42,314 bases of DNA, taken from NCBI GenBank assembly GCA_013152685.1, contig JAADFX010000121.1:1-42314 (forward strand). Direction: 5' to 3'. The notes below the pieces were generated by a model, which ran no database searches, was not told the origin of the DNA, and saw only the letters and a list, made by a program, of their open reading frames with translations. Shown here piece by piece: positions 11,952 through 31,874 of this stretch (position 1 is its first letter; each line of letters starts with the position of its first letter). Source of the DNA: Methanobacteriota archaeon (GTDB taxonomy: Archaea > Hydrothermarchaeota > Hydrothermarchaeia > Hydrothermarchaeales > BMS3B). Made by a program: the position numbers and the translations under genes.

Positions 11952-12632
11952 ATGAGGGTAGTTGTGGCACTCGCACTGCTAGTGTTTACTATGGTAATAT
12001 CCTCCCAGGTGTACTCCCAGGAGGAGTACACAAAGATAGAGGGCCTTGACCCGCTGGTCAGGAACTTCGGCGGCATGGGCCACAGCGGGAGCAAGTGCAT
12101 ATACTGCCACGCCTTCCTGATGCCCGACAGGGAGTACGAGGAGAAGTTCCTGCAGGCGGGCTGCAGGTGCCATCAGAGTGATGTGGCCAATGGCTATGAT
12201 GTGCGGATGAACGACATCCGCGAGAAGCACTCCTCCAACCACTGCAAGCTCTGCCATGCGGGCACCAAGAATGTGACCTACCAGCTCTACCATCAGAAGG
12301 TGCACAGGGCGGTGCCCTGCGTAAAGTGCCACAAAATTCAAAATGTGACCGACTTCAGCGTAACCAAGCCCAAGAGCATGGAGTGCAAGACCTGCCACAG
12401 GTACGACATCCACTACACCCACTCCAATGTCCTGGGAAATGTGTGCAAGATGTGCCACGGCACCGGCTTCGCATCCCGGTATACGAAGGAGGACCTGGAG
12501 AGGCTCAACCTGGAGGAAGAGGTGATCAACAGGACGATTAGAGAGAAGCAGCCGCCTAAAAAGGAGGTGAAAGAGGTTGGATTCATTACCATCTCGAAGA
12601 TCCTTGCTTTTATCATTGATATTATTTTCTAG
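11952..12632 (+). CDS. Pentahaem c-type cytochrome with signal peptide and C-terminal TM anchor
   Basis: MRVVVALALLVFTMVISSQVYS signal peptide. Five CxxCH motifs: CIYCH, CKLCH, CVKCH, CKTCH, CKMCH. C-terminal hydrophobic GFITISKILAFIIDIIF. Confidence 0.85.
   Translation: MRVVVALALLVFTMVISSQVYSQEEYTKIEGLDPLVRNFGGMGHSGSKCIYCHAFLMPDREYEEKFLQAGCRCHQSDVANGYDVRMNDIREKHSSNHCKLCHAGTKNVTYQLYHQKVHRAVPCVKCHKIQNVTDFSVTKPKSMECKTCHRYDIHYTHSNVLGNVCKMCHGTGFASRYTKEDLERLNLEEEVINRTIREKQPPKKEVKEVGFITISKILAFIIDIIF
12561..12570 (+). promoter_or_regulatory. Shine-Dalgarno (AAGGAGGTGA) inside the 3' end of the pentahaem gene, serving the overlapping lipoprotein gene
   Basis: Perfect GGAGGTGA 6 nt upstream of TTG 12577. 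Confidence 0.55.
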
Positions 12633-13026
12633 CATCATCGCCGCAGGATGCCTGAAGCTGCAGCCAAAGAAGATAAACGGCATTGAGTTCTCAGTCCAGG
12701 TTGAAAACAACCGGATAGTTCCGGATTCTGTGGAGGTCAGGCTGACTCCTGTGGACCTCACGGAGTACAGGGTGCCGGGCGTTGACTACCCACCCTTCCT
12801 GGCCTTCAGGGGGTACATTGTGCCAAAGGAGAACAGGAGCATAACCCACTCCACCTACTGGGGCCTGGTGCAGTACAGGGGCTCCGGGAGGTACAGGGTG
12901 GTGCTCATAACAGAGAACGGCTACAGCCCCAAGAAGGGGGACGAGGTGAGGTACTACATAACCCTGAGGAGCAGGGATGTGAGGTGGTCCTCCTCCTTCG
13001 TTAGCGGTTCGCGGGTGCTGGAGTGA
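12577..13026 (+). CDS. Small lipoprotein (lipobox IAAGC), beta-rich; hypothetical
   Basis: TTG start with a strong SD. (M)DSLPSRRSLLLSLILFSSIIAAGC is followed by a beta-strand-like sequence. Overlaps the pentahaem gene by 56 nt. Confidence 0.6.
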   Translation: MDSLPSRRSLLLSLILFSSIIAAGCLKLQPKKINGIEFSVQVENNRIVPDSVEVRLTPVDLTEYRVPGVDYPPFLAFRGYIVPKENRSITHSTYWGLVQYRGSGRYRVVLITENGYSPKKGDEVRYYITLRSRDVRWSSSFVSGSRVLE

Positions 13027-13030
13027 TTCC

Positions 13031-14695
13031 ATGAGAGCCGATGTGGTGTTCGCCGCAGCAGTTATGTTCCTGCTCACCCTCCCGGTGGTCTTCTCCGCCG
13101 GCGAAGCCGTGATAGTCTCCGAGGTCGAGGGGCTGGGCGAGTACACTGAGGTGGAGAACCCCGTTTACATGCCCGGGGAGACGGTGAAGCTCTACATTGA
13201 GGCGGAGGACGTAAACCACGCGGGCTTTGTTGCTGTGAACTTCTACATTGTGATCTACAACAGCCGGTTTGAGATAAAGGATGTGCTCCCCTACACCGTA
13301 AGGTACAGGCGCTACCTGAGGGATGTGTACATAACCCCCGAGTTCAAAATTCCGGAGCACTGGGAGGAGGGAAAGTACTACATAAAAATCCACGCCTTCG
13401 ATGTGGCCGATGAGGATAAAGTCAGGAGGATGTACGCGCGGGCTCTGGACTGGTTCAATCCCGACTACGGTGCTGCCAAGTCCTTTACCGACCAGCCGGA
13501 GGGCGTCAACGTCGGGGGCTACTCCGGGTATCTGAAGAGCGAGAGCTCCGCCAGGGCAATTCTGACCAGGACGCTTAGCTTCACAGTGGTCAAGAGGAAG
13601 CAGGTGGTGGAGGAGGGGGCGCCGGAGAGGGAGATAGAGTACTACCCGGTGAACATCACCTACCACCTGGACTCCCAGCGGCTGAGCGCCCCGAAGTTTA
13701 TCTCCCAGAAGCCCTTCACCTTCAACTTTACCCTCTCCAGGGGCATCCACGGCGGCGTCGTTGCCCTGGACTACTTCTTCCTGATAACCAACAGGGATAA
13801 TGAGCCCATCTACTACTCCATGTCCCGGGAGAGGTACATAAAGTACCCGGGCAACTCCATCTCCCACACCTTCTCCTACCAGCTGCCCGAGGGAGAGTAC
13901 TACCTGCTGGTGAAGATCTACGACAGGGCCAATCCAGAGCCCCTCCGGAGCTTCATCCGCAGCCTCAGCGGCTATGCCGAGGAGTACGACATCAGGAAGA
14001 TTGACGCCTACCGGCGCATAAAGGAGGGCAGGGATGTGGACGATGTGCCCTACTCCACCCTGGGGATCCTGAAGCCCTCAACAGAAGAGAACCTGGTTTA
14101 CTTTGCCAAGATACCCTTCGAGGTGGTGACTGAGCTCAGGAAGGAGCGCCTCACAGTTCCGGTCATAAGGTACCTCTCCCTGGAGCCCAGCGAATTCATT
14201 ATAAACATCTCACAGCCCTTCTCCGTGAAGGTCAGGTTCAAGAACATTGGCAAGGAGGGCACCGTGGACATACTCATGGACATAAGGGGCGAGAGGCGGG
14301 GCTATCGCCTGAGGCAGACGGTGTTCGCGGAGCCGGGTGTGGAGAAGACGGTGGTCTTCAACGTCACCCTGCCGCTTACCGAGGGTCCGTGGAAGATATC
14401 AATTGTGAACTCCACCCTAAGCGAGGTGGTGCTGGTCCAGAGGCCTGAGGTGATTGAAAAGTTCGAGGCAAACCTGACGGAAGAGGAGGAGCTCTTTGCC
14501 CCGGTGGAGGTGGAGAAGCCGAAGACTCCCCTGGTAATAATCCTGCTTCTGGTGGTCGCCCTGGTGGCCCTGATGCTCATCCTCAGGAGGAGGTACGGCG
14601 GCGAGGTGCCCCAGGAGTTCGCCCTGCCCATAAAGATAACCCTTCTGCTCCAGCTCGCCCTGCTGGCGCTCTACCTCCTGTACATGTATAAATAA
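13031..14695 (+). CDS. Secreted Ig/CARDB-like repeat protein with C-terminal TM segments; hypothetical surface protein
   Basis: Signal peptide MRADVVFAAAVMFLLTLPVVFSA. Recurring EGKYYIKIHAFD / EGEYYLLVKIYD modules. CARDB-like ISQPFSVKVRFKNIGKEGTVDILMDI...VVFNVTLPL. TM PLVIILLLVVALVALMLILRRR and a second hydrophobic tail. Confidence 0.75.
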   Translation: MRADVVFAAAVMFLLTLPVVFSAGEAVIVSEVEGLGEYTEVENPVYMPGETVKLYIEAEDVNHAGFVAVNFYIVIYNSRFEIKDVLPYTVRYRRYLRDVYITPEFKIPEHWEEGKYYIKIHAFDVADEDKVRRMYARALDWFNPDYGAAKSFTDQPEGVNVGGYSGYLKSESSARAILTRTLSFTVVKRKQVVEEGAPEREIEYYPVNITYHLDSQRLSAPKFISQKPFTFNFTLSRGIHGGVVALDYFFLITNRDNEPIYYSMSRERYIKYPGNSISHTFSYQLPEGEYYLLVKIYDRANPEPLRSFIRSLSGYAEEYDIRKIDAYRRIKEGRDVDDVPYSTLGILKPSTEENLVYFAKIPFEVVTELRKERLTVPVIRYLSLEPSEFIINISQPFSVKVRFKNIGKEGTVDILMDIRGERRGYRLRQTVFAEPGVEKTVVFNVTLPLTEGPWKISIVNSTLSEVVLVQRPEVIEKFEANLTEEEELFAPVEVEKPKTPLVIILLLVVALVALMLILRRRYGGEVPQEFALPIKITLLLQLALLALYLLYMYK

Positions 14696-14733
14696 AATTT
14701 AATGTTATTGTTAAAATTTTGAAATAAGGTGAA

Positions 14734-17700
14734 ATGCGGGCCTGCTCTGCGCTTTTGCTGATTCTCCTCCTGGTCGGGGTGGTTAGGGCGGATGTGATAC
14801 AGGTTACCAGCTCCTCCGGGTGCGTCGCCGCCAACGCCACCTTCTCTGACCCCGGGGAGGCTGTTTTAAACTCCGGCGCCAACGATACCATCATCCTCTG
14901 CCCGGGTGTCTATGAGCTGTCCTCCCTCACCATCGACAAGCCCCTGAAGATAGCCGGCCACCTGCGCGGCACCGCGGTGCTGAACCTCTCCACCCCCGGC
15001 TACAGCAACCGGATCAGCATTCTTGCCGACGGCGTCGAGCTCAGGAACCTGACAGTTGTCTCGGGCGGGGTGAATGTGTACGCCCTCTACATAAGGGGCA
15101 GAAACATAACCGTTGAGGATGTGGCGGTGGAGGATGGCTTCTGGTACGGCTTCTACATAGTCTCCTCCCGAAATGTGGTGCTCAAGAGGGTGAGGGTTCG
15201 CAACATGGCTGAGGCAGCCCTCGAGGTGCGCGACACCACCGGGCTGATTCTGGAGGACTCCACCCTGGTGAGGGAGAGCAGCACCTCCAGCCAGTACACC
15301 GGCAGGTACGTGGCGCTTTACAATGTCTCCGGCTCCACCATAAGGAACAACAGCATCTTCGGCGTCGTGAGGGACAGGAGTGACGGCTACGACTCGGGTT
15401 TTGCCATATACCTGAACTCCTCCTCGGGGAACACAGTGGCAGGCAACTTCGTGCGTAGGGTGTCCTACTGCATATTTTTTGACGACCCCTCCTCCGGCAA
15501 CATCTTTTACAACAACTACTTTGAGTGCGGCACACCTCCCTGCCGGGACAACCTGGGCGGTGTGAACCACTACAACACCAGCAGGAGAGCGGGCCTCAAC
15601 ATCGTGGGCGGCGGCACCCTGCAGGGCAACTACTGGGGCGGCCTGCTGCCCTACAGCGGTAGCGACCTGGACGGCGATGGCATCGGCGACACCCAGCTTC
15701 CCTACAACGCCACGAAGCCCCAGGACGGCGTCACCTACATCCTGGGGGGCGGCGACTGGGGGCCGCTGATAAAGCAGCGGGAGACCTCGCCGCCGGTGGT
15801 GGTGTCTGTGAACCTCCTCCCTGACCAGGAGGTCGCCACCTGCACCGACCTCAACCTGACTGTCACCTCCTACGCCGAGAGGATAGAGGCGTGCACCCTC
15901 GAGCTGGATGGCAGGCAGCTGCCGATGAACGTCTCCGGCGGGAGCTACATATACTACTGCAGCTACCGCCTCTGCCCTGCCGACTTCTCCGGGGGCTACC
16001 TCCCCTACAGGGTGACGGTCAGGGACTCGGCAAACAACACGGCGGATTCAGGCTACAGGGGCCTGCTTGTAAACGCCTCTCCGGCGCTCATTCTAATACA
16101 CTCCCCGCGGGATGGTGCCGCCTACAACGTGAGCACCCTGCCCCTGGAGGTGGGAGCCAGCGACGGAGTTTCCCAGTGGACTTACTCCCTGGATGGCGGG
16201 GCGAACACCAGCTTCACCCCCAACACCACCATCACCGCCGGGGAGGGCTCCCACCTGCTGGAGGTGTATGCGAGGGACTCCGCGGGTTACCTCATATACC
16301 GGAACTCCAGCTTCACCGTTGACCTGACGCCACCCTCCATAAGCCTCACCTCCCCACTGAACGGCTCCATCTACACCACCCGGAATGTCACCCTCAACGG
16401 CACCTCGACGGAGGAGGTCAGCTGGAGCTATGTGCTGAACGGGAGGTCGGGCTACCCCTCGGGATTGCCCGCCAGCCTGAGCGCCGATGAGGGGGCGAAC
16501 CGCCTGCTCGTCAGGGCTGTTGACAGGGCCGGGAATGCCGCCGTCGCAGAGGTCAGCTTTACGGTGGACACATCTCCGCCCACCGCAGCCTCCTCCGCCG
16601 GCAGCAGCGTCAGGGTGGACGTCAACTCCTCCTACAACCTCTCCTGGAGGCTTTACGACAACCTCGCCGGCGGCTACTACAGGCTGCTGCTCAACGGCAG
16701 CCCGCTGGTGGACTGGCGCCCCTGGAGCAACGCCACCGCCGTGGAGGCTGCCGTGGACACCTCACGGCTGGTGGAGTACGTCTACACCCTTGAGTTCAAC
16801 GACTCCGCAGGCTGGCTGGCGGTGAGCCGCGTTGTGGTGGATGTCATCGACCCCAGCCCCCCGGTGATAAACATCACCTCCCCTGCTGACGGTGCCCTTT
16901 ACAGCACAGCTCAACTTCTCATCAACGCCACCGCAGACAGGGCGGTTCACACCTGGCTGTGGAGCCTCAACGGGAGCCAGAATCAGAGCTTCACCCCGCC
17001 GGCCGTGGTAAACCTGACCTCCGACGGCACGTATGTGCTGGACATCTGGGCGAACTCCACCTCTGGGGCGATGGGACACGCGTCGGTGTCCTTCAGCGTG
17101 GACACCACCCCGCCGGCGGTGGTTATAGCATCTCCGGCGAATGCCACCTACGCGGACACAAGAGTCCCCCTGCGGGTGAGCGCCGGGGAGCGGGTATTAA
17201 ACTGGAGCTACCGGCTGAATGGCGGTCCGGAGGTGGGCTTCACGCCAAACACCACGATTGCCGCGGCGGCGGGACAGAACCACCTGGTGGTGTACGCGCT
17301 GGACAGCGCCGGCAACAGGGGCAGTGCGTCGGTCTACTTTACCGTCTCACCCCCCTCCCCGTCCCCCGGTGGCGGCGGAGGCGGGGGGGCGAAGCAGAGC
17401 ACCAGGAGGCTGCAGCTCGTCCTGAAGGATGCGGAGGCCGGCGGGTATACCAGGCTTGAGGTGGAGAGGTGGAACATATCGGAGGTGCTGGTGAAGCCAC
17501 GCCACACCGTATATTACGGGGAGCTGGTGCTGGAGCTTCTGGAAGCCCCTCCGGAGGCTGAGCTTGAGGGGGAGGTGTACCTGAGCTTCAGGCTTGTGAC
17601 CCGGCCGGGCATGCTGGAGGAAGCCAGGATACGCTTCGGCGTTGACGAGGTCTGGCTCAGGCGTCTGAACCTGTCCCCGGAGGACGTGGGAGCGCTTTAC

Positions 17701-18096
17701 CTTACGTCAGAGGGCTGGAAGGAGGTAGCTGTCAGGAGGGCGGGTGTGCTCAACGGGACCCTGCTGTACGAGCTTGTGCTTCACGAGCCCGGGCGGTATG
17801 CTGTGGTTGCCTCGCCGCCCATTGCTGGAGCCGACCGCCTCGTGGATGAGGAGAAGCCCGAGTGGAGGTTCATCCCTCCCGGCACCGGAGCCGCGGGCGG
17901 TGGAGCGGGGGAGGTGAAGGAGGAGCCCGGGGTTTCAGCTCCTTCGCCCCCATCACCCGCGCCGGAGAACGGCAGGTCTGCGGGGTCCCCGCAGGAGGAG
18001 AGGGGTGGAATATGCGGTCCCACCCTTCTGCTTCTAGTCTCCCTTGTCCCGCTGCTCGGCGCCAGGCTTCTGCGTCAGCCTCAGCCTGCCGAGTAG
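14734..18096 (+). CDS. Large surface protein: right-handed beta-helix (NosD/PbH1-like), multiple Ig-like repeats, PGF-pre-PGF-like domain, C-terminal TM anchor
   Basis: Signal peptide MRACSALLLILLLVGVVRA. Beta-helix turns (NNSIFG, GNTVAGNFV, NIFYNNYF) and DLDGDGIGDTQLPY. Repeated ~95-aa modules (...SPRDGAAYNVSTLPLEV...WTYSLDGGANTSFTPNTTI...; ...SPADGALYSTAQLLINA...WLWSLNGSQNQSFTPPAVV...; ...SPANATYADTRVPLRV...WSYRLNGGPEVGFTPNTTI...). Gly7 linker. C-terminal GGICGPTLLLLVSLVPLLGARLLRQ. Confidence 0.85.
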   Translation: MRACSALLLILLLVGVVRADVIQVTSSSGCVAANATFSDPGEAVLNSGANDTIILCPGVYELSSLTIDKPLKIAGHLRGTAVLNLSTPGYSNRISILADGVELRNLTVVSGGVNVYALYIRGRNITVEDVAVEDGFWYGFYIVSSRNVVLKRVRVRNMAEAALEVRDTTGLILEDSTLVRESSTSSQYTGRYVALYNVSGSTIRNNSIFGVVRDRSDGYDSGFAIYLNSSSGNTVAGNFVRRVSYCIFFDDPSSGNIFYNNYFECGTPPCRDNLGGVNHYNTSRRAGLNIVGGGTLQGNYWGGLLPYSGSDLDGDGIGDTQLPYNATKPQDGVTYILGGGDWGPLIKQRETSPPVVVSVNLLPDQEVATCTDLNLTVTSYAERIEACTLELDGRQLPMNVSGGSYIYYCSYRLCPADFSGGYLPYRVTVRDSANNTADSGYRGLLVNASPALILIHSPRDGAAYNVSTLPLEVGASDGVSQWTYSLDGGANTSFTPNTTITAGEGSHLLEVYARDSAGYLIYRNSSFTVDLTPPSISLTSPLNGSIYTTRNVTLNGTSTEEVSWSYVLNGRSGYPSGLPASLSADEGANRLLVRAVDRAGNAAVAEVSFTVDTSPPTAASSAGSSVRVDVNSSYNLSWRLYDNLAGGYYRLLLNGSPLVDWRPWSNATAVEAAVDTSRLVEYVYTLEFNDSAGWLAVSRVVVDVIDPSPPVINITSPADGALYSTAQLLINATADRAVHTWLWSLNGSQNQSFTPPAVVNLTSDGTYVLDIWANSTSGAMGHASVSFSVDTTPPAVVIASPANATYADTRVPLRVSAGERVLNWSYRLNGGPEVGFTPNTTIAAAAGQNHLVVYALDSAGNRGSASVYFTVSPPSPSPGGGGGGGAKQSTRRLQLVLKDAEAGGYTRLEVERWNISEVLVKPRHTVYYGELVLELLEAPPEAELEGEVYLSFRLVTRPGMLEEARIRFGVDEVWLRRLNLSPEDVGALYLTSEGWKEVAVRRAGVLNGTLLYELVLHEPGRYAVVASPPIAGADRLVDEEKPEWRFIPPGTGAAGGGAGEVKEEPGVSAPSPPSPAPENGRSAGSPQEERGGICGPTLLLLVSLVPLLGARLLRQPQPAE

Positions 18097-18666
18097 CGCT
18101 CTGAGGAAGCTCCTGCTGCCCCTCCCGTTGGTGGCATACACCTTCTCAGCGCCCGAGCTGAATACGGTGCCCAGGCAGCTCTCACAGAAGAGCAGCGACT
18201 TTCTGTCTATCTCATCCACGGTGCTGGAGAACTTCATGTTGCACTCGCTGTTCTCGCAGTGCACCATGCCCAGGGTGTGCCCCAGCTCATGCAGCGCCTC
18301 CTTGAGCAGCCTCTCCAGGAACAGCTCCCTCTCCCATTCCCGGCCGTGCCGGGCATCCCGGAGTCGGAAGGGGGATATAACCGCCCACCTGCCCCCCAGC
18401 GCCGCAAGGCCGAAGATGTAGTCAACCCCCGCGACGGTGATGTCCCTGTCTATCACGGCGAGCACCCTCTCCGCCGCGGTGGGGCGTGAGGCCAGGGTGT
18501 CCAGGAGGTGGTCTGCCAGCACCTGCCCCCTGGAGTTGAAGCGGAGGGGCACCTCCACCGGAGGCGAAACCACAACCTCACCGAAGAACTCGGCCAGCCT
18601 GTCCCTGAGGTACCGCAGCCACTCGTCCTCAACGCAGCCAATGGGTAGTATCTCGAGCACCGTCAC
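18034..18666 (-). CDS. amzA: Archaemetzincin (peptidase M54)
   Basis: HELGHTLGMVHCENSECNMKFSSTVDEIDRKSLLFCESC matches the archaemetzincin signature HExxHxxGxxxCxxxxCxM...CxxC. Typical N-terminus MTVLEILPIG. The 3' tail overlaps the convergent 14734..18096 gene by 63 nt. Confidence 0.85.
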   Translation of the reverse strand: MTVLEILPIGCVEDEWLRYLRDRLAEFFGEVVVSPPVEVPLRFNSRGQVLADHLLDTLASRPTAAERVLAVIDRDITVAGVDYIFGLAALGGRWAVISPFRLRDARHGREWERELFLERLLKEALHELGHTLGMVHCENSECNMKFSSTVDEIDRKSLLFCESCLGTVFSSGAEKVYATNGRGSRSFLRALLGRLRLTQKPGAEQRDKGD

Positions 18667-18689
18667 AGATATACTCTATCTGCTTCACG

Positions 18690-18712
18690 ATTTAAAAATT
18701 TTTTTATATAAG
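18690..18712. promoter_or_regulatory. Shared AT-rich bidirectional promoter (tttaaaaatttttttatata) between amzA and the beta-helix/CWB2 gene
   Basis: Lies 24-44 nt from ATG 18666(-) and 20-40 nt from ATG 18731(+). Both transcripts would be (nearly) leaderless. Confidence 0.4.
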
Positions 18713-18730
18713 CTTGGAAAATATTTATCC

Positions 18731-20590
18731 ATGAGACACCTCCCCCTGCTCCTGCTGCTGCTCCTATCCCTTCCGGCGGCATTTCCGGCGACGGTGTGTC
18801 CCACGGGGTGCGACTACTCCTCCCTCCAGGAGGCGGTTTCCTCTGCCGCGGAGGGGGAGGTTATACTGGTGAAGGGGGGCAGCTATTCTGTCAATCTGGT
18901 GATAAACAGGAGCCTGACGGTGGTGGGCGAGGGCGGTGTGCTCCTCACGCCGGGAGATAGCAGGCTACCTGTGGTGTACGTGGTGTCCTCCGCCAACGTC
19001 ACCCTCAGGGGGCTGGGCATCGACGGCGCAGGACAGAGCTGCGTGGAGGTGGAGCTGTCACGCGGCGTGAGGCTTGAGGAGCTTGAGCTGAGGTCCTGCC
19101 TCTACGGGCTGAGGGTATCCGACTCCTCGAGGCTCGAGGCGGGGGCGCTTACGGTGGAGGGCGCCTCCTTTGGCGTTGAGGTTCAGAACACCACGGGGGT
19201 GAGGCTCGAGGGGCTCACCCTCAGGTCCCCGACTGTGGCGGGGGTAATCCTCTCCGGTAGCAGCGGCTGCTACCTGGGGAAGAGCAGCATACTCCCTGCT
19301 GGAGCTGCCGGCGGTCTCTATCTTCAGAATTCGGACAGCTGCACCATCTCCGAGGTGCTGGTGAGCGGCGGCGGCACGGCGGTTTCGCTTGACGGCTCCT
19401 CCGGGAACACCCTGAGGGGCATCAGGATAGCAGACTCCTCCACCGGCTTTGAGCTTTCAGGCTCCAGGGACAACACCATAACGGGCAGCTCTGTTTCGAG
19501 TGCCGGCGTCGCCGTGTACCTCAAAAACTCCCGGGGGAACCTGCTCTACGGGAACGACTTCACCTCCGGTGGTCCCCAGGCGGTGGTGGACGATAACCCG
19601 AACCTGTGGAACAGCAGCACCGGCAACTACTGGCGGGACTACGGGGGCAGGGACGCGGATGGCGATGGCTTTGGGGATGTGCCCTACGTTATAAACTCCC
19701 TGAATGTGGACCACCTGCCTGTGGTGAGGCCCTTCTTCGCCTTAGCCACCTCCTCGCCGCCCCCGCCTGCGGGGGGAGGCGCCGGGAAGAGGAGGGACCC
19801 CCTGGCTGCGGGCGAGTTTTTCAGGCTGGATGAGGAGCTTCTACTCAGCATACTGGACTACTTCGACGTCAGGGGTAGGGTGTACTCGGTATCCCCGGCT
19901 GCGGGCGCCGCCCTCCTCGCCATCAGAGACAGGAGTCTGTTTCCTGTGACGGGCGCCGGGGAGGTGGACTCCAGGCTGGGCGCTCCCGCGGAGTGGTCGG
20001 GCGGGGACTACAGCCTGGTTGTGGAGGAGGTGGGCAGCTCCTTCACCTTCTCGGAGGACGTGGTGGTGGCGCGGGGGGACATAGGCGCTGATGCGGTATC
20101 TGCGATAGCCTACGCCAGGGCGAGGAGGATACCCCTGCTCCTGGTGGAGCCCGGGCGCACCCCGGCCGAGGTGAGGGGGCTGATTGAGCGGCTGGGCGTC
20201 CGGAGGGTGGTGATAGTGGGCGGACCACGGGCGGTTTCCCCGGCTGTGGAGCGGGAGCTCGCCTCCCTGGCTGAGGTTGTCCGCATATACGGCGAAACCC
20301 GGGTGGAGACCTCCATCAGAATGGCGCAGGCGCTGGAAGGTGTCCGCGGCACCCCGAGGCTGCTGCTGGTGCAGGACGGCTGGCGCACTTCTCCCGGGGC
20401 TGCGATACTCTCCGCCCTGTATGAGGCTCCAGTGCTCTACGTGAGGGGCGACGAGCTCCCACCCTCTCTCGAGGAGTACCTAAAGGAGCTCTCGGGCAGG
20501 GGTGTGGCGGTGGTTTTTGCGGGGGTTTCCCCACCGGTGGAGTCGGCGGTGAGGGAGATACTCAAAGGTCAGAGAAGCCCCACTCCCTGA
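18731..20590 (+). CDS. Secreted beta-helix (NosD-like) protein with C-terminal cell-wall-binding-repeat-2 (CWB2)-like domain
   Basis: Start moved from the track's 18437 (which would overlap amzA antisense) to ATG 18731, giving MRHLPLLLLLLLSLPAAFPA. Beta-helix repeats and DADGDGFGDVPYV. The C-terminal half has CWB2-like motifs (RIPLLLV, VVIVGGPRAVSPAVE, RIYGETRVETSIRMAQ, APVLYV). Confidence 0.8.
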   Translation: MRHLPLLLLLLLSLPAAFPATVCPTGCDYSSLQEAVSSAAEGEVILVKGGSYSVNLVINRSLTVVGEGGVLLTPGDSRLPVVYVVSSANVTLRGLGIDGAGQSCVEVELSRGVRLEELELRSCLYGLRVSDSSRLEAGALTVEGASFGVEVQNTTGVRLEGLTLRSPTVAGVILSGSSGCYLGKSSILPAGAAGGLYLQNSDSCTISEVLVSGGGTAVSLDGSSGNTLRGIRIADSSTGFELSGSRDNTITGSSVSSAGVAVYLKNSRGNLLYGNDFTSGGPQAVVDDNPNLWNSSTGNYWRDYGGRDADGDGFGDVPYVINSLNVDHLPVVRPFFALATSSPPPPAGGGAGKRRDPLAAGEFFRLDEELLLSILDYFDVRGRVYSVSPAAGAALLAIRDRSLFPVTGAGEVDSRLGAPAEWSGGDYSLVVEEVGSSFTFSEDVVVARGDIGADAVSAIAYARARRIPLLLVEPGRTPAEVRGLIERLGVRRVVIVGGPRAVSPAVERELASLAEVVRIYGETRVETSIRMAQALEGVRGTPRLLLVQDGWRTSPGAAILSALYEAPVLYVRGDELPPSLEEYLKELSGRGVAVVFAGVSPPVESAVREILKGQRSPTP

Positions 20591-21857
20591 GGTGGACGTG
20601 CTCCTCACCGCTCCTGAGCCTCTCTATCCTCTCCTCCGTCAGGGCGATGTACCTCCTCAGGTCCTCCTCCAGCCTTGCCACCCTCTCCAGGTCTATCCTG
20701 GAGCCCAGGTCGCCACCGCCTCCCAGCGAGTCCCTGAAGCGTCTGTACTTCTCCAGGCTCTTCTCCATTATTCCGCGCAGGCTGAAGCCACCCAGGAGGA
20801 TGAGCACATCCACTGTGCTCCTTCCGGGCTCTGCGACCAGGCTGGTGTACCTGAGCACTCCCTCCCCTGCCAGGTGCCGGGATGCCCACTCCCTGGCCAC
20901 GTCCTCCAGGTCCTCCTGGGTAATCTCGCCGCCTGTCACCCTCTCCTCGGGTGCCGCAACCACGATGTAGGCCATCGTGCCGGTTCCCCTCTCCACAGGC
21001 GCCATGGCGTTGCCGGAGGCGCTCTCCAGCATCGCCTCCAGGCTCAGCACCTCAGGGTCGTTCCCCAGGCTGAGGCAGGGGGTGAAGTGCACAGTGCCGA
21101 TGTTGCTGGGCAGCTGGTAGTAGTCGGCAATGTCTATAGTGGCCCTGGACCACCGGCTGCTGGGCGCAATGAGCAGGTGTATTGTCCTTATAATCTCCTG
21201 GTTTATCCTGTGGTATCGCTCCGCCCTCTGCCCCCTCCTGATGCCCAGCACCCTCTCCACCTGGGAGTTGTCCACCAGTATCACCAGGGCGGCGTTCTGC
21301 TCACCCTCGTAGCGCAGGAGCCTCGCAAGGCCGCAGATGGCGTTGAAGTGCCTCTGGGGCCCCTCGAAGTCGTAGGGGAGGATTCCCAGCGCCAGGAAGT
21401 TGTTGACCCTCTCCAGCCCCTGTCCCGGGTTCCTCCTCACCCTGTGGATGATGTAGGGCAGCGAGCCGTTCCCCGTGCCTCCGCCCAGGGTGGTGATCCC
21501 CAGAAGCACATCGCTGCTCCTGAGCCTGAGGTCAGCGATGTACCTCCTGATGCTGTCGTAGTCGTCCATCGCCTCCCTCTCACCCAGCACCCAGTTGTTC
21601 CCCGCCCCGCTCGGAGCCCTTCCGAAGATGCAGACGCGCCTCCTCCTTATCCTCTCGAACTCCTTCCTGAGCTCCGGCTCTGAGGCAAATATCTGCTCCA
21701 GGGGCGCCTCCGGCCTCAGGTCTGCCGGCGTAGTGTTCAGCAGCAGCACCCTGTCCTCAATTGCGGGGTTCCTGTACTTTGCGTAGTAGAGGAAGGCTAT
21801 CCTGTTGGCGCCCTGCCCGCTTGCGATTATTCCCCACCGCGTTAGCATTTTCTTCAA
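20562..21857 (-). CDS. Divergent tubulin/FtsZ-superfamily GTPase, CetZ-like (protein B of the pair)
   Basis: IIASGQGANRI (T1-like), GAGNNW (T3-like), GGGTGNG (nt 21465-21485, signature), ILPYDFEG...LVILVDNSQV, TIDIADY (T7-like), and a C-terminal domain ending VDVLILLGGFS. The TTG start overlaps the upstream stop (TTGA); an alternative ATG lies at 21848. Confidence 0.75.
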   Translation of the reverse strand: MKKMLTRWGIIASGQGANRIAFLYYAKYRNPAIEDRVLLLNTTPADLRPEAPLEQIFASEPELRKEFERIRRRRVCIFGRAPSGAGNNWVLGEREAMDDYDSIRRYIADLRLRSSDVLLGITTLGGGTGNGSLPYIIHRVRRNPGQGLERVNNFLALGILPYDFEGPQRHFNAICGLARLLRYEGEQNAALVILVDNSQVERVLGIRRGQRAERYHRINQEIIRTIHLLIAPSSRWSRATIDIADYYQLPSNIGTVHFTPCLSLGNDPEVLSLEAMLESASGNAMAPVERGTGTMAYIVVAAPEERVTGGEITQEDLEDVAREWASRHLAGEGVLRYTSLVAEPGRSTVDVLILLGGFSLRGIMEKSLEKYRRFRDSLGGGGDLGSRIDLERVARLEEDLRRYIALTEERIERLRSGEEHVHLREWGFSDL

Positions 21858-23218
21858 CCCTTCAGCCTGAGCACCTTGCCCTCCAGCACCGCCTCCGGAT
21901 GGGACTCGCTGTACAGCCTCAGGAACTCCTCGGCGTAGCGCACCCCGAGTTCGCCCGCCGAGACCCTGCCCGCCTCCGCCAGCTTCCGGGATATAATCCT
22001 CTCCACCGCGGGGTAGTTCCTGGCTATCTTGACCTCCCTGTACCTCCTGGAGAAGTCTGCGGCTAGGGCGGTGAGCACCTCCAGTGCGCTGCCCGCAAAC
22101 TCCCTGAACTCCCTCCGGGGGTCCAGCTCCGAGATTCTACCCCCGGCGCCCGTCCCCTCCACCGCCCTTCCGAGCTTTCTGAGTTCCTCGTCCAGCACTG
22201 AGATCTCCCTTGCCATCGCCCTGGCGAGCTCCAGGGTGAGCCTCTTCGCCTCCTGGCGGATGCTCCTGAACTCAGCCAGCTGGCCCGGGTCTGTGTAGCT
22301 CTTGGCACGCTCCCTGAGCTCGCGGAGCACCTGCCGTTCCCTCTCAAAGCCCCGGCTCAGCTCCAGCATCCTGTCCAGGTAGGCCAGCACCTCCTCTCTG
22401 GCCTCAAGGAAGGGGCGCGTCAGGTAGCTGGAGACCTCACTCCTGACCCTGAGTAGCCTGTAAACGCTCTCAACCTTCTCCCTCTCCCGCTTTACCCGCT
22501 CCAGCTCCTCCCTGAGGTGGGAGACGTCTGCCACCCCCTCGGCTGTGGTGAGCAGGAACTCGGCCTCCCGAATGCACCTCTCCACCAGCCTCCCGTACTG
22601 CTCCTCACCGCGCCTCCGCTTCTCCAGCAGGTCCTGGAGGCTGGCGGCAGGCATGGATGCAACCCTCCTAAGCTCCTCGTACTCCTCCCTGACGGAGAAG
22701 CCGCCCTCCACCAGCATCTGGGCGGCATCCAGCAGCTCCTGCATGCGCCCAGCCACGGCCTCACCGTAGCTCGCCACCACCAGCGACTCCAGGCTGCGCA
22801 GCTGCTGCTCCACCTTCCTGCTCTCCAGCTCTATGGCGGTCAGGGTCACCCTGTCGATTTTCCCCTCGTTTATCTGGAACTCCCCCGTAAAGAATCCCCT
22901 GGATATCAGCCCCCGCTTTATCCCGGCCAGGTCCTCCATAAAGGGCTCCACGTCCACCATCTCCGACGCTGCCCTGAGGTTCCTCTCCAGCACCTCCACC
23001 GCGTCCTTAATCTTGTTCAGAATTTCAATCTTCAGCAGGACCACAGTTCTGTCGGTTTTGCTCTTCCACCAGGTGTAGACCAGGCTTGCCAGGAGAACGC
23101 TTAGGATCACGCCCACGGCGAGGTAGGACACAAAGCTTATCCCGAAGGTGAGGAGCAGGGCGACCCCCACCCCCAGGGTGAGGAGCACCACGAGTGCGGT
23201 CACCGCGTACTCATTCAT
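21854..23218 (-). CDS. Membrane-hairpin (2 TM) coiled-coil protein, hypothetical; candidate filament tether
   Basis: MNEYAVTALVVLLTLGVGVALLLTFG and FVSYLAVGVILSVLLASLVYTWW, then ~380 aa of E/R/L-rich heptad-like sequence. A possible small globular C-terminal end (ARNYPAVERIISRKLAEAGRVSAGELG...). The ATG overlaps the upstream stop (ATGA 23215-23218). Confidence 0.8.
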   Translation of the reverse strand: MNEYAVTALVVLLTLGVGVALLLTFGISFVSYLAVGVILSVLLASLVYTWWKSKTDRTVVLLKIEILNKIKDAVEVLERNLRAASEMVDVEPFMEDLAGIKRGLISRGFFTGEFQINEGKIDRVTLTAIELESRKVEQQLRSLESLVVASYGEAVAGRMQELLDAAQMLVEGGFSVREEYEELRRVASMPAASLQDLLEKRRRGEEQYGRLVERCIREAEFLLTTAEGVADVSHLREELERVKREREKVESVYRLLRVRSEVSSYLTRPFLEAREEVLAYLDRMLELSRGFERERQVLRELRERAKSYTDPGQLAEFRSIRQEAKRLTLELARAMAREISVLDEELRKLGRAVEGTGAGGRISELDPRREFREFAGSALEVLTALAADFSRRYREVKIARNYPAVERIISRKLAEAGRVSAGELGVRYAEEFLRLYSESHPEAVLEGKVLRLKG

Positions 23219-24417
23219 GCTTCCGCCTCACTCTCCAGAAAGTCCTTCTCGTACTCCTCCAGCACCCTCAGCGAGATGTCCTTGTACTGGCTCGCCAGCT
23301 GGCTCAGGGTTCTGAGCCTCGATATCTGGTTGGGACGGTAGGTGAGCAGCACCGTGGCTGTTGCCAGGTTGCGCTTCGTCAGAGCCACGCCGAAGTGGGT
23401 CTCCCCCAGGCGGGAGTGCTCCTCCATGACCTGCTTCGCCATGCTGGTGTTTATCCTCCCGCGCTTTGTCAGGTAAACCGGAGGTATGCGGAGCAGCACT
23501 AGGTTCTTCTCAGCGTGCTCAGGCCTGAGCTCCGCCACAGTCAGCTTCATGAAGCTCCTGTACAGCAGGGAGATCACATCTATCTCCCGGTGCCCCCCGA
23601 AGGGGAATATGTAGTGCAGGAAGTTCCTTGTCCTCTCGGAGGCCCTCCCCAGGGCGGCGAATCCGTGGCGGGTGCGCTTTCCGAAGGAGAAGCTGGTTGC
23701 CGCGATCATGTCCTTGAGGTCGATCACCGGTGCATAGCCCTCATACCTGGAGGGGTCCACCCTCTCTATGGCGGTGCCTATAAGTATGTCCCTTATGCTC
23801 CTCGCCACATACTCGTTGTACCTCTGGAAGAGGCTCTCGGCGCTCTCCGCGTGGGCAAGCTTCTGGTTGTCCACCAGGATTACGGAGTCCACATTCTCTA
23901 TGAGCAGGTTGAGGCTCTCCACGGAATTTTTTGCTGTCAGCCCCCCCTCGTGGGTTGCCGGAAGAACCACAACGGCTATCACGGGAACTCCCATCTCCTT
24001 GAGCACCCCTGCCACCACGGGTCCGGCACCGCTTCCCGTCCCGCCTCCCAGGGCGAAGGCGACAAATGCCACGGGCACACCCACGCCGCTGTCCCCCTCC
24101 CCCACCCTGGTTCTCTCCACAATCACCTCCTTCAGGTTCTCCCTGAAGCGCAGGGCGTCCTCCTCGGCCCTGGCGCGGTTCTTCCCGTAGCCGCCGCTGA
24201 CGAAGTGCTCAAAGCCGTGCATTGTTCCGGGTATGAACCCCCTGTCCCGGGACATCCCCACCCAGTGCTCCCTCCCGAGGTTCTTGAGCGTCTGAAGGTC
24301 CAGGGTGGCTGAGTTGATTGCTATTGGCACCGCTATCTTGAACATCACCTCGTCGTAAAAAGCAGCATCAATTATGGCGCCGCCGCACTGTCCAACACCG
24401 ATAAACACGTAGGGCAT
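23215..24417 (-). CDS. CetZ-like tubulin/FtsZ-superfamily GTPase (protein A of the pair)
   Basis: MPYVFIGVGQCGGAIIDAAF (tubulin-like GQCG T1 loop), FALGGGTGSGAGPVVAG (signature, nt 24028-24048), VVLPATHEGGLTAKNS...VILVDNQ, VIDLKDM (T7-like), and an FtsZ_C-like end (KNLVLLRIPP...THFGVALT...ATVLLTY). Start moved from the track's 24468 to ATG 24417; the extension lies in the AT-rich promoter. Confidence 0.8.
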   Translation of the reverse strand: MPYVFIGVGQCGGAIIDAAFYDEVMFKIAVPIAINSATLDLQTLKNLGREHWVGMSRDRGFIPGTMHGFEHFVSGGYGKNRARAEEDALRFRENLKEVIVERTRVGEGDSGVGVPVAFVAFALGGGTGSGAGPVVAGVLKEMGVPVIAVVVLPATHEGGLTAKNSVESLNLLIENVDSVILVDNQKLAHAESAESLFQRYNEYVARSIRDILIGTAIERVDPSRYEGYAPVIDLKDMIAATSFSFGKRTRHGFAALGRASERTRNFLHYIFPFGGHREIDVISLLYRSFMKLTVAELRPEHAEKNLVLLRIPPVYLTKRGRINTSMAKQVMEEHSRLGETHFGVALTKRNLATATVLLTYRPNQISRLRTLSQLASQYKDISLRVLEEYEKDFLESEAEA

Positions 24418-27448: not shown

Positions 27449-29842
27449 CTAGAGGTGGCTCCCCCGCAGCCTCATCAGGACCTCCTCGCTCTTCAGCATG
27501 TGCTCCAGGCACAGCAGCAGGTAGCTGGCGAAGCCCAGGAGCGCCTCCTTTTGCTCTGGTGAGGCGCTCTCCGCCCTCTCCAGAAGCTTTTTTGACACCC
27601 GCCACAGGGATGCGGGCGGGTGGATGGAAAGCTCTCCGAGCAGCGAGGTGAGCCTTTCGTCCGCCTCCTGAAGCCGCCTCTCCACCTGCGCGCTGTCCAC
27701 CTCTCCGCCTGTGGAGAAGGGCGGGGGCTCACACCCCTCGGCGCTGCGCATTCTTGAGGAGGCGGAGACCGCCAGATTCTTCCAGTCCTGCATCGCCTCG
27801 ATGAGTAGCTCTACCGCATACCCGGCCGCCTCCACGGCGCCCATTCCCCGGAGCAGGGCCATCTCCTCCGCTCCCCTGAGAACCTCCTCCGCGGCTCTCC
27901 GGAAGAACACGGGCAGGCACGGGTCGTCTACAGAGATGCGCTCGCAGCTCTCGGCAACACTCCGCCTCAGCTCCCCGAGCGTGGCCCTCACCTCCGGCGG
28001 GAGCTCACCCGCAGGCCTGAGCTCCACTTGAACCTCCCCTTCTCCCGGCGGAACCTCCACCTCGCGGGGGGCGAAGCCCTCCTTCTCCACCCTCAGCAGA
28101 GACGGCGCCTCCCCCGCGGGGAGCTCTGCCCTGCCGGAGGCGTCCGTGGTGCTGCCCGCATCGCCCATCCTCACCGCTGCCCCGCTGATTGGCCCGCCGC
28201 CTGGCCCTGTAACCCTTACCCTGAGCCTTCTCTCGGCAGCCTCCACCCCGGCGCCTGCCTCCTGCCTCCTTCGCCTGAGGAGCAGGGCTCCGCCACCTAG
28301 CAGCAGAAGGGCAGCCAGCGCGTATATGAGCCGGGCATCAGCCGCGGGCGCTGAGGTGGAAGCCTTCCCGGTGGGTACCCTCAGAATTCTCCCACCGGAC
28401 AGCACAAGGGCAGCGCTTCCATCAGGCGCCAGGGATATGTCCACCACCCTCGCTAGTGGGCGGAGCGTCCACACCGGCTCGCCCTCCCGGGTCATCAGGT
28501 CCACCCTCCCGGGCGAGGCGAGGAGCAGGTACCCTCCCCCCGCGTCCATTACGGTGGCGTTGTGGTCGAGGGGCAGGGTGCGCACCACTCTGCCGCCGGA
28601 GAGCATCACCACCTCATCCCCCAGCAGCAGGTACAGGACATCTCCCCCTGCTTCGAGGTCCAGGATGCTTGTGTTGAGATTCACCCTCCAGAGTGGGGCG
28701 CCCTCGCCGGAGAGCATCACCACCCTGCCACCGGCAGCAGCGGCGATTCCCTCCCCCGAAACCTCCAGCAGCTCGGGGGTGAACTCGGGCACCTTCCTCC
28801 ACAGCAGTGCTCCGGCGGTGTTGTACAGGTGCAGCTCGCTCCCGGCGAAGAGGGCTATCCTTTCCCTGGAGGCGGCGAGCAGCACCACCTCCCCACCGGT
28901 TGAGGCGTTCCACTGCCTGGCTACCCCGGCGTAGTGGACGATTTTATCCCCCTCTGCGACCACAAACCCCCCATCGTAGGCGGATACCAGCGGTGCAGGG
29001 GAGGTGGCCACCCTGCCCAGCAGCTCTCCGGAGCTGCCCAAGAGGTAGAGCTCGCCCCTGCCCACCGCCACCATGCCCCCGGAGGTCGCCACCACCCGGG
29101 TGATGTTGCCCGGCGGTAGTATCCAGCTTCCCGGGGGTGCGGTGGAGGGCTTCACCAGGGTGATTACCCTGCTGGCTGAGGCGGTTCTGTTGCCAAGGCT
29201 TATGTTCACCACCAGCGGGTACCTGCCAGGTGGCAGTCCGGAGGTGTCCCAGCGGTAGGGCAGGGTGCTGCTCTTCAGGCTTCCGTTGATGTACACCGCC
29301 GGGCTGGCTCCCGGTGTGTGGAGGGCGTCCACCACCAGCACATCTCCCTCAGAGAGGACCTCCTCGAGGGGGGAGGTTATCTCCACATACAGGGCCGGGG
29401 AGGTGTTCAGCACCACCACCTCCCCGTGGGCATAGGCGGTGGCGCACCCGTCTTTAAATGTGAATCTCACCGTCAGGGCGTAGCTTCCGGGGCTGGGAGG
29501 GGCAAAGAAGCCGAAGGAGGAGGCCACCTCCTGCCCGGGAATCGCGCTGCCGGAGTACAGCCGTGCCAGCGGCTGCTCGCTCCAGTTTCCCAGGAGCTCC
29601 GCCTCCACCCGCGTGGCGGCGGCCTCTCCGAAGACCCAGCCTATCCTCCCCTCAATCCTCTGCAGCGGTGCCGCGGCGATGCTCCCCTGCTGCCCCCCAG
29701 CCTCAGGGTTCAGGTCGAAGACGGTTAGGCTCATGAGCTCCGTGCTGCTCCCCGGGCTGAGGTGGTACACATCCCCCCTGCATGAGGCGTGCAGCGGTGG
29801 AAGAAGGAGCAGCAGCATCACAAAGGCTGGTGCCATCCGCAT
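27449..29842 (-). CDS. Single-pass membrane protein: extracellular Ig-like plus PQQ-like beta-propeller, TM, cytoplasmic CarboxypepD_reg-like beta domain and helical domain
   Basis: Signal peptide MRMAPAFVMLLLLLPPLHAS. About seven ~38-aa repeats (e.g. GELYLLGSSGELLGRV, SELHLYNTAGALLWRK, RVVMLSGEGAPLWRV, RVDLMTREGEPVWTL). TM LIYALAALLLLGGGALLLRRRRQ. Then VRVTGPGGGPISGAAVRMGDAGSTTDASGRAEL...LLRVEKEGFAPREVEV and ~200 aa of helical sequence. Confidence 0.75.
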   Translation of the reverse strand: MRMAPAFVMLLLLLPPLHASCRGDVYHLSPGSSTELMSLTVFDLNPEAGGQQGSIAAAPLQRIEGRIGWVFGEAAATRVEAELLGNWSEQPLARLYSGSAIPGQEVASSFGFFAPPSPGSYALTVRFTFKDGCATAYAHGEVVVLNTSPALYVEITSPLEEVLSEGDVLVVDALHTPGASPAVYINGSLKSSTLPYRWDTSGLPPGRYPLVVNISLGNRTASASRVITLVKPSTAPPGSWILPPGNITRVVATSGGMVAVGRGELYLLGSSGELLGRVATSPAPLVSAYDGGFVVAEGDKIVHYAGVARQWNASTGGEVVLLAASRERIALFAGSELHLYNTAGALLWRKVPEFTPELLEVSGEGIAAAAGGRVVMLSGEGAPLWRVNLNTSILDLEAGGDVLYLLLGDEVVMLSGGRVVRTLPLDHNATVMDAGGGYLLLASPGRVDLMTREGEPVWTLRPLARVVDISLAPDGSAALVLSGGRILRVPTGKASTSAPAADARLIYALAALLLLGGGALLLRRRRQEAGAGVEAAERRLRVRVTGPGGGPISGAAVRMGDAGSTTDASGRAELPAGEAPSLLRVEKEGFAPREVEVPPGEGEVQVELRPAGELPPEVRATLGELRRSVAESCERISVDDPCLPVFFRRAAEEVLRGAEEMALLRGMGAVEAAGYAVELLIEAMQDWKNLAVSASSRMRSAEGCEPPPFSTGGEVDSAQVERRLQEADERLTSLLGELSIHPPASLWRVSKKLLERAESASPEQKEALLGFASYLLLCLEHMLKSEEVLMRLRGSHL

Positions 29843-29874
29843 GGAGATAATTTGTTGCGGGTGCAATATGAAGC

Positions 29875-30651
29875 TTAGCACACCTCACCCTCGGCGAAGC
29901 CCTGCCGCAGGTGGGTTATCCTCACCCTCACCTCATCCCCCCTCCGGGCGCCTCTTACGAATACCCTTGTCCCCTTTATGCGGGCTATTCCGTCTCCCCT
30001 CCGACTCTCCCCGGCGATCTTCACCCGGTACACCTCACCCCTCCTGAGCCTGGAGAACCCCCTGCCTATCAGGTACACCTCGGCACTTTCACTGCGGCTC
30101 GCTCTGGGCTTGGTGAGCTTAACATAGCCGAAGCACCCCCTAACCCTCTCCACCAGGCTCTGCAGGAGCTCCCCCTGGAAGACCTTCAGAAGCAGATTGC
30201 CCCCCGGCACCAGGTGCTCCTCTGCAATCTCCAGTGCGAGTTCGCAGAGCTCAATACTCCTGGCGTGGTCTACGTCCCAGATGCCGCTTATGTCTGGAGA
30301 CGCGTCGCTTATCAGGGCATCGCACTCGGGTATGAGCTCCCTGAGCCTCTCCCTGACCTCGGTGCTCCTGAAGTCGCCCCTGAGCAGCACCACATTTTCG
30401 TATTCCAGGGGCTCCACCGCCTGGAGGTCAACCCCCACCACAAGCCCAGAGTCGCCCACAGCCTCCGCGGCAACCTGGGTCCACCCGCCTGGGGCGCACC
30501 CCAGCTCTATCACCCTGTAGCCGGGCCTGAGGATTCCAAAGCGGCGGTTGAGCTGGAGCAGCTTGTACGCCGCCCTGGAGCGGTAGTGCTCCTTCTTCGC
30601 CCTCCTGTAGTAGTAGTCCCTCTTTCTCTCCTTCAGCCAGCGCTTTCCCAT
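29875..30651 (-). CDS. rlmE: 23S rRNA 2'-O-ribose methyltransferase RlmE/FtsJ fused to a C-terminal TRAM domain
   Basis: MGKRWLKERKRDYYYRRAKKEHYRSRAAYKLLQLNRRF...VIELGCAPGGWTQV...DVLISDASPDISG (FtsJ SAM-MTase motifs). C-terminal GEVYRVKIAGESRRGDGIARIKGTRVFVRGARRGDEVRVRI is the TRAM domain. Start taken at ATG 30651 (typical MGK... N-terminus), not the track's 30729. Confidence 0.85.
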   Translation of the reverse strand: MGKRWLKERKRDYYYRRAKKEHYRSRAAYKLLQLNRRFGILRPGYRVIELGCAPGGWTQVAAEAVGDSGLVVGVDLQAVEPLEYENVVLLRGDFRSTEVRERLRELIPECDALISDASPDISGIWDVDHARSIELCELALEIAEEHLVPGGNLLLKVFQGELLQSLVERVRGCFGYVKLTKPRASRSESAEVYLIGRGFSRLRRGEVYRVKIAGESRRGDGIARIKGTRVFVRGARRGDEVRVRITHLRQGFAEGEVC

Positions 30652-30691
30652 ATTCCCACGCACAACGTTAATCATCGCGGGTATTATTGAA

Positions 30692-31525: not shown

Positions 31526-31874
31526 GTGCACCCGCTGCGGCGCCTGCGTCAGGGTGTGCATCGCCGCCAGGAGGGGCACACCAACGGGTGCGAGTGTTCT
31601 GGAGAGGGAGGACCCCTTCACCTGCGCCGGCTGCTGGAAGTGCGTTGAGGCCTGCCCCGAGGGCGTTGACATCTACGCCCTGATGCTGGAGGCCCGCCGC
31701 CGGGGACGGCTGCCCGAAAGCTTCAGCTTCGCCCTGAGGAACATCCTGGACACCGGCTACTCCATGCCTGTGCGCGGCGTCAACGCCATAAGGGAGATGT
31801 ACGGCCTCCCGCCAATAAGGAGGGTCAAGCCCGAGGTCGTCAGGAAGCTCCTGCGGGACGTGAAGCCCGGGTAG
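31512..31874 (+). CDS. hdrC: Heterodisulfide reductase subunit C-like 2x[4Fe-4S] ferredoxin
   Basis: CTRCGACVRVC and CAGCWKCVEACP (CxxCxxCxxxC(P) twice). TTG start overlaps the hdrB 3' end by 14 nt. Confidence 0.7.
   Translation: MSLGECTRCGACVRVCIAARRGTPTGASVLEREDPFTCAGCWKCVEACPEGVDIYALMLEARRRGRLPESFSFALRNILDTGYSMPVRGVNAIREMYGLPPIRRVKPEVVRKLLRDVKPG

Follow-up and report, generated by a model that had tools for sequence, protein, structure and literature searches.

CetZ proteins are archaeal members of the tubulin superfamily that are tied to cell shape. We know of no paired paralog or dedicated membrane anchor for them and, to our knowledge, work on the archaeal tubulin superfamily consists mostly of sequence surveys, with only FtsZ and CetZ studied in cells. 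Among bacteria, BtubA and BtubB of Prosthecobacter are eukaryote-like tubulins whose filament is bound and stabilized by BtubC, a soluble, kinesin-light-chain-like protein. Here we describe a locus on contig JAADFX010000121.1 of a Hydrothermarchaeota archaeon, analyzed over its 42,314 nucleotides (nt; “the window”), in which the genes of two tubulin-superfamily GTPases, protein A and protein B, enclose the gene of a helical protein with a predicted membrane hairpin, MID. On balance, we read the A-MID-B set as a conserved, membrane-attached archaeal cytoskeletal module that is linked to the cell surface.

Several described systems share part of this design. AtubA and AtubB of Asgard archaea (Kariarchaeaceae) are likewise paralogous, heterodimeric tubulins whose genes form an archaeal operon with translational overlap. 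They are probably made in equal amounts, but they belong to the tubulin clade and have a GTPase-dead K248 interface (PMC13394414). The proteins described here differ from AtubA/B in being a CetZ-like protein and a divergent paralog, in having an Asp in the T7 loop of both, and in the membrane-hairpin MID gene that lies between them. The Prosthecobacter operon also combines two tubulin paralogs with a non-tubulin third protein; MID is set apart from BtubC by its membrane hairpin and its apparently novel helical fold. The CetZ proteins (Haloferax volcanii CetZ1 and CetZ2, Methanosaeta CetZ) include the structure nearest to A (4b46) and the top matches for B (4b46 and 3zid), yet A and B have no CetZ_C domain and fall outside the canonical CetZ clade.

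The FtsZ anchors SepF, FtsA, ZipA and EzrA, and the haloarchaeal CdpA, are comparable to MID in that a separate protein ties a tubulin-superfamily polymer to the membrane. They differ from MID in that there is no sequence kinship and in that MID is predicted to sit on the C-terminal domain of B, not on an FtsZ-type C-terminal peptide. In TubZ/TubR/TubY systems, a tubulin-like GTPase has a helical membrane-binding partner (PMC7762940). FtsZl1 proteins (Makarova and Koonin, 2010; PMC2875224) are FtsZ-like proteins of archaea and bacteria with a predicted role in membrane remodeling and are also encoded beside membrane-protein genes. Their genomic context includes a vWA protein, a P-loop GTPase and OmpA, however, and Pfam scans of the proteins neighboring the A-MID-B locus found none of these. 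Haloarchaeal “Halo.Tub” genes with coiled-coil neighbors and near-tandem copies have been reported (Santana-Molina et al., 2023; PMC9871819), and these may overlap with the haloarchaeal members of the family described below. Our literature search found no paper describing or naming the A-MID-B trio.

The A-MID-B operon

The operon consists of the following features, given with the evidence for each.

23215..24417, minus strand: protein A, a CetZ-like tubulin-superfamily GTPase (A-family) of 400 amino acids (aa); Pfam, best PDB match, tree
23215..23218, minus strand: ATGA overlap of the A stop codon and the MID start codon; sequence check, with overlaps kept in many relatives
21854..23218, minus strand: MID, 454 aa, a hydrophobic helical hairpin and a predicted all-helical bundle; hydropathy, AlphaFold, conserved family
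21854..21857, minus strand: TTGA overlap of the MID stop codon and the TTG start codon of B; sequence check
20562..21857, minus strand: protein B, a divergent tubulin/FtsZ-superfamily GTPase (B-family) of 431 aa from its TTG start; Pfam, AlphaFold fold, T7 residues

An initial annotation, made from the letters of the window and their open reading frames (ORFs), had described the three genes as a translationally coupled operon chained by 4-nt overlaps. When checked against the sequence, every motif and coordinate that it quoted was present exactly, including both overlaps. The ORF of A could be extended to a TTG at 24468, and homologs favor the ATG at 24417. Gene overlaps and tight spacing were seen again in relatives of the locus, and the tight, widely conserved gene set supports the coupled operon.

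Proteins A and B belong to two divergent families

Protein A, translated from 24417, has the motifs GVGQCGG (starting at residue 7), GGGTGSG (residue 124; nt 24028-24048), VLPATHEGG (residue 151), ILVDNQ (residue 180) and VIDLKD (residue 231). The corresponding series in B, numbered from the TTG at 21857, is SGQGANR (residue 13), GAGNNW (residue 84), GGGTGNG (residue 125; nt 21465-21485), ILPYDFEG (residue 159), ILVDNSQ (residue 193) and TIDIAD (residue 240). The Pfam Tubulin domain (PF00091) was matched by A with an E-value of 1.1e-22 and by B with an E-value of 1.2e-6, the latter under Pfam's gathering cut-off. The AlphaFold model of B (predicted template modeling score 0.90) has a complete tubulin-like fold that includes the C-terminal helices H11 and H12. 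Its top Foldseek matches were Methanosaeta CetZ (3zid) and H. volcanii CetZ1 (4b46), with E-values of about 1e-17, and M. jannaschii FtsZ, OdinTubulin and eukaryotic tubulins were matched as well (E-values of about 1e-17). By their T4 GGGTGxG motif, glycine-rich T1 loop, T7 loop and fold, A and B are tubulin-superfamily GTPases, as had been proposed. Because the model of B shows the full tubulin fold, with CetZ, FtsZ and tubulins as its structural neighbors, a placement of this protein outside the fold can be dismissed.

The likeness of A to CetZ is more limited than first suggested. The nearest solved structure by sequence is indeed H. volcanii CetZ1 (4b46, E-value 5e-17), but CetZ_C (PF21011) was not detected in A or B even at E <= 10; the canonical CetZ protein P0080 matched it with an E-value of 1.5e-65. 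We built a maximum likelihood tree of 65 proteins, with an A-family that includes haloarchaeal members annotated as “FtsZ.” In this tree, the deep nodes of which lack resolution, the A-family forms its own clade (SH-like approximate likelihood ratio test, 100), apart from the PF21011-bearing CetZ proteins, from FtsZ and from CetZ-like paralogs encoded on contig C105 of the host genome. The B-family forms a long, separate branch. Since A has no CetZ_C and falls in a clade of its own, it is best named CetZ-like, and its identification as a canonical CetZ was ruled out.

Neither protein is an FtsZ, as the matches to the NCBIfam FtsZ equivalog (TIGR00065) were far under the cut-off of 295 bits (75 bits for A and 31 bits for B). 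FtsZ_C had no Pfam match in A or B. The FtsZ-like C-terminal end noted for A in the initial annotation is not conserved across the A-family and is therefore probably due to chance. Judged by sequence, A and B are best assigned to two separate deep families that are neither CetZ nor FtsZ.

Both proteins retain the catalytic T7 residue

In tubulin-superfamily proteins, the T7 “synergy” loop of each subunit supplies the missing part of the GTPase site in the next. The loop sequences, VIDLKD in A and TIDIAD in B, align with NLDFAD of FtsZ and VVDSSE of CetZ, and we take the catalytic position to be that of FtsZ D212 and alpha-tubulin E254. The catalytic Asp is invariant in both families, as D236 in 13 A-family sequences and as D245 in 16 B-family sequences; in the B-family T7 loop, both D242 and D245 are invariant. 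The T1-T7 motifs are intact in both A and B. From these motifs we infer that A and B polymerize, each probably being able to do so because the machinery for GTP binding and hydrolysis is kept in both.

In alpha/beta-tubulin and in Asgard AtubA/AtubB, one subunit has a Lys in the T7 loop (beta K254, AtubA K248), which results in a non-hydrolyzing intradimer interface (PMC13394414). Because A and B both keep the catalytic Asp, they do not follow the alpha/beta-tubulin or AtubA/B design, and the T7 residues rule out a heterodimer of the strict alpha/beta type, in which one interface is dead. Of the analogy to alpha/beta-tubulin and BtubA/B drawn in the initial annotation, the tubulin-like form is thus lost, and what stands is a co-encoded, co-inherited and translationally coupled pair. 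A co-polymer of A and B is possible and, if formed, would be expected to have GTPase-competent interfaces of both kinds. We know of no heterodimeric tubulin with both interfaces able to hydrolyze GTP.

MID is a predicted membrane-hairpin protein that may bind B

MID is rich in Glu (13.7%), Leu (14.1%) and Arg (12.1%), and hydropathy analysis revealed a hydrophobic N-terminus (residues 1-51). In this region are two helices (residues 3-25 and 27-51) with a hinge at Gly26, and the second modeled helix continues to residue 84; the F-G hinge is a conserved feature of the family. As modeled, the hydrophobic segment would form a tight helical hairpin within the membrane, and the helical bundle is placed, with some likelihood, in the cytoplasm because the positive residues come after the hairpin. 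The AlphaFold model of MID (predicted local distance difference test 89.5) is a compact bundle of long helices. The previously described 454-aa protein with an N-terminal hydrophobic hairpin and an E/L/R-rich sequence was recovered, but the compact multi-helix bundle rules out one long coiled coil.

No Pfam domain was found in MID, and a Foldseek search of its model against the PDB returned no structural homolog. The VIA-wide comparison matched generic helical bundles with Z-scores of 7-12 (maximum 12.1), including EzrA, F-BAR and designed bundles. EzrA resembles MID in that a membrane segment at the N-terminus is joined to a helical domain in the cytoplasm; the match to this domain (Z 8.8), as well as that to F-BAR (Z about 8-9), is a weak and generic helical likeness. 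We do not take such matches as a sign of kinship. A word-based homology search gave eight close relatives of MID and a hidden Markov model (HMM) search of fetched loci gave many more, with MID found in all complete loci.

The predicted complex of MID (residues 52-454) and B scored 0.67 in three runs, and all controls scored 0.00. In the calibration of this score, the mark was reached by 58 of 80 solved complexes and by 2 of 110 mismatched pairs. On MID, the predicted interface (residues 397-428, in a C-terminal segment, 397-432, that is predicted to bind B) coincides with the most conserved part of the protein, with invariant E406, I409, L413 and Y428. The B side (residues 263-282) comprises the end of strand S7, the S7-H9 loop and helix H9, in the C-terminal domain, and by analogy would be the M-loop region of tubulin. 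The modeling supports direct contact between MID and B, and from it we infer that MID tethers filaments at the membrane. The idea of MID as a membrane tether, raised in the initial annotation, thus gains support that falls short of proof.

Conservation and distribution of the cassette

A search with an A-family profile, in which a single genome represented each GTDB species, identified 72 loci, and we then applied HMMs for A, MID and B. The three-gene arrangement is kept beyond the host genome, as these profile and HMM searches revealed the order A-MID-B in every sufficiently flanked locus from Hydrothermarchaeota/Pyrohabitans, Methanobacteriota and Methanoperedens. The closest relatives are from Hydrothermarchaeota metagenome-assembled genomes and Candidatus Pyrohabitans, with identities of 89-92% for A and about 80% for B. 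Of 38 genomes from the host phylum, 23 encode A, which adjoins B in all 23; one genome has B alone, at a contig start, and 14 have neither. Across 53 loci, the tree of A is congruent with that of B (Mantel r 0.94), and no permutation gave a correlation as high. A and B are a co-encoded, co-inherited and translationally coupled pair. In Hydrothermarchaeota, the cassette was found on chromosome-scale contigs of 1.9 Mb and 620 kb.

The cassette is also present in cultured haloarchaea, including Haloarcula, Halorubrum, Halobaculum, Natrinema and Halobacterium salinarum R1. Haloarchaea encode a longer MID, of 690-1070 aa, which is separated from A by two small genes (83 and 352 aa). The genes of H. 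salinarum R1 are OE_RS12060 (A, annotated as FtsZ), OE_RS12045 (MID, 690 aa) and OE_RS12040 (B), on plasmid PHS2; plasmids of Halobaculum and Natrinema carry further copies. Upstream of A in haloarchaea, we noted a third tubulin-like gene (about 540 aa) and conserved genes of 454 and 631 aa at 27-28 loci, for example in locus L085 and at 184903-189846 of the H. salinarum R1 PHS2 record.

Two other lineages have distinct arrangements. The Micrarchaeota form is rearranged, with MID and B adjacent and A on the opposite strand. The A-family proteins of Altiarchaeales are encoded with neither MID nor B nearby and have a long Lys/Glu-rich C-terminal extension; the protein from locus L032 reaches 717 aa.

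Neighboring surface-protein genes

The cassette is flanked by the following genes.

18437..20590, plus strand: NosD/right-handed beta-helix/CW_binding_2 surface protein, a possible associated gene that is convergent with B; Pfam, adjoins B in locus L004
24485..25429, plus strand: S314, with an N-terminal signal and a C-terminal membrane anchor, divergent from A; hydropathy, same-place homologs in loci L013-L031
25431..27440, plus strand: S669, with a NEW3/NPCBM-associated immunoglobulin-like domain and a C-terminal membrane anchor; PF10633 (E-value 8e-5), hydropathy, conserved neighbor
27449..29881, minus strand: S810, a predicted single-pass protein with an extracellular N-domain and a cytoplasmic C-domain that has a CarboxypepD_reg-like fold; CarboxypepD_reg (E-value 2.7e-7), topology

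Loci of the Hydrothermarchaeota and Methanoperedens type retain S314. The start of S669 is uncertain, as its ORF extends from 25167. The membrane span of S810 lies near residues 519-537 and is followed by RRRR. The cytoplasmic domain is the part of S810 that is conserved across lineages. In Micrarchaeota, a standalone S810-type cytoplasmic domain is encoded beside B, and the same genomes encode A-family proteins of 498-604 aa with a C-terminal extension homologous to the S810 domain (BLASTp E-values of 1e-5 to 3e-12). Because the domain is fused to A in this lineage, A appears to work with the S810 cytoplasmic domain and probably binds it.

The CarboxypepD_reg (transthyretin-like) domain at residues 553-615 of S810 is predicted to be cytoplasmic, which is an unusual location for that domain family. 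A second large NosD/right-handed beta-helix surface protein is encoded at 14734-18096 on the plus strand. One protein of this NosD-type pair (18437-20590 and 14734-18096) has CW_binding_2 and the other has bacterial immunoglobulin-like domains.

A possible membrane-attached cytoskeletal module and its alternatives

In the module that we consider probable on balance, A and B would be two GTP-binding filament proteins, co-produced at matched levels from the translationally coupled operon. MID would sit in the cytoplasmic membrane by its tight hydrophobic helical hairpin, which could sense or bend membrane curvature, and its cytoplasmic domain would grip B via its most conserved C-terminal segment, so that filaments are tethered to the membrane. 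The cytoplasmic domain of the S810 family would probably contact A, and the S810 extracellular domain, together with S314 and S669, would couple the filament system to the cell surface. The module could in this way organize or reshape a patch of membrane and surface, with an effect on cell shape, surface-protein placement or membrane protrusion. Shape, the patterning of surface proteins or membrane remodeling is the most likely purpose; division is less so, as the host genome has FtsZ1 and FtsZ2.

Several points weigh against such a module. In Altiarchaeales, A has no MID or B nearby, so that in some lineages it can function without these partners. An obligate mixed polymer is made less likely by the catalytic T7 Asp, which is kept in both subunits. 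The contact between MID and B is a predicted one, expressed as model confidence, and its site on B would be near the M-loop that is used for lateral contacts, so that binding there could compete with filament bundling. Moreover, the biological role is deduced from the neighboring surface proteins alone.

An alternative close to the initial annotation is that A and B form an analog of alpha/beta-tubulin, with a stable heterodimer, alternating protofilaments and MID as a BtubC-like membrane-binding accessory. We regard this as doubtful. Two distinct tubulin paralogs are co-inherited in one coupled operon, a genetic set-up shared with Asgard AtubA/AtubB (PMC13394414) and Prosthecobacter BtubA/B/C, but the catalytic Asp is invariant in both A and B where alpha/beta-tubulin and AtubA/B have a T7 Lys in one subunit. 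In addition, identity between A and B is low, at about 25% over some 180 residues, and neither falls in the tubulin clade. That the two are distant paralogs would fit an absence of co-polymer, in which A would form a CetZ-like filament and B would be a regulator, cap, nucleator or filament of its own that MID holds at the membrane. MID is predicted to bind B specifically, and the Micrarchaeota fusion ties A to the S810 cytoplasmic domain instead of to MID, both of which would agree with separate roles, as would an A that works without B in Altiarchaeales. However, an obligate partnership would account just as well for the strict co-occurrence and the congruent trees, and the complete GTPase and conserved T7 loop of B argue for a polymer-forming activity of its own. 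We consider separate roles of this kind unlikely.

Two further explanations assign the locus to division or to DNA segregation. FtsZ with SepF or EzrA likewise pairs a tubulin-superfamily protein with a helical membrane anchor, which could point to an accessory division ring, a third FtsZ-like system, although the resemblance to EzrA is weak. The host genome already encodes FtsZ1 and FtsZ2 apart from A and B, which makes a role of A-MID-B as the main division ring unlikely. A and B are neither FtsZ nor near FtsZ, and the module is tied to surface proteins and has a patchy distribution, with several lineages of the phylum lacking it, so that an accessory ring also seems very improbable. The plasmid-borne copies of H. 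salinarum R1 (PHS2), Halobaculum and Natrinema would suit a plasmid or DNA partition system similar to the type III TubZ/TubR/TubY, with MID in the place of TubY, the membrane-binding partner of a tubulin-like motor protein (PMC7762940). Unlike in such systems, no tandem or centromere-like repeats were found near the locus and no DNA-binding domain was detected in Pfam scans of the neighboring proteins. The cassette is chromosomal in many lineages, including on the chromosome-scale contigs of Hydrothermarchaeota, and its neighbors encode surface proteins, not DNA-binding proteins. We rejected a partition system for want of centromere-like repeats and of a DNA-binding neighbor, and give this explanation very little weight.

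A-MID-B, a common, conserved and co-inherited cassette, is a candidate new archaeal cytoskeletal system that combines two tubulin families with a new membrane-hairpin helical protein and surface proteins. It makes testable how tubulin paralogs pair in prokaryotes and how archaeal filaments attach to membranes, and both questions are directly accessible because the cassette occurs in cultured, genetically workable haloarchaea. A bolder version, which we put forward tentatively and think less likely to be right than wrong by a wide measure, is a single mixed A/B filament with both interfaces hydrolyzing, pinned at its side by MID via the M-loop region of B and linked by S810 to extracellular proteins. 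Such an inside-outside cytoskeletal bridge would organize the cell surface, and gene transfer would have carried it among Euryarchaeota, haloarchaea and DPANN. A mixed A/B polymer with two active interfaces would, if true, represent a third independent route to a two-subunit tubulin filament.

Host genome and genomic context

The genome from which the window derives is 1.8 Mb in size and 96% complete, on 130 contigs, with a guanine-plus-cytosine (GC) content of 0.60. It has seven tubulin-superfamily genes, comprising two FtsZ genes (contigs C106 and C24), three CetZ-like genes (contig C105), A and B. The three CetZ-like genes are in tandem at 12433-16627 on the minus strand of C105 and encode proteins of 381, 338 and 390 aa; a 272-aa protein with a signal peptide is encoded among them. 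The C105 proteins cluster with canonical CetZ in the tree, two of them on long branches.

A promoter and terminator scan gave three terminator-like matches against 2.8 expected, which is at chance level; its promoter model is that of sigma-70 and is unsuited to archaea. A search of sequencing runs for expression listed no RNA dataset and returned DNA contigs only, with small word shares.

The cumulative GC skew of the window (1-42314) turns at about 32-34 kb; local gene orientation, and not a replication origin, may account for this. Genes at 29875-33619 encode an FtsJ/TRAM rRNA methyltransferase, a CCG (cysteine-rich) protein, an MgtC/DUF4010 protein, a DUF6866 protein and a phosphoglucomutase. 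MgtC/DUF4010 and aminotransferase genes also come after the cassette in locus L001.

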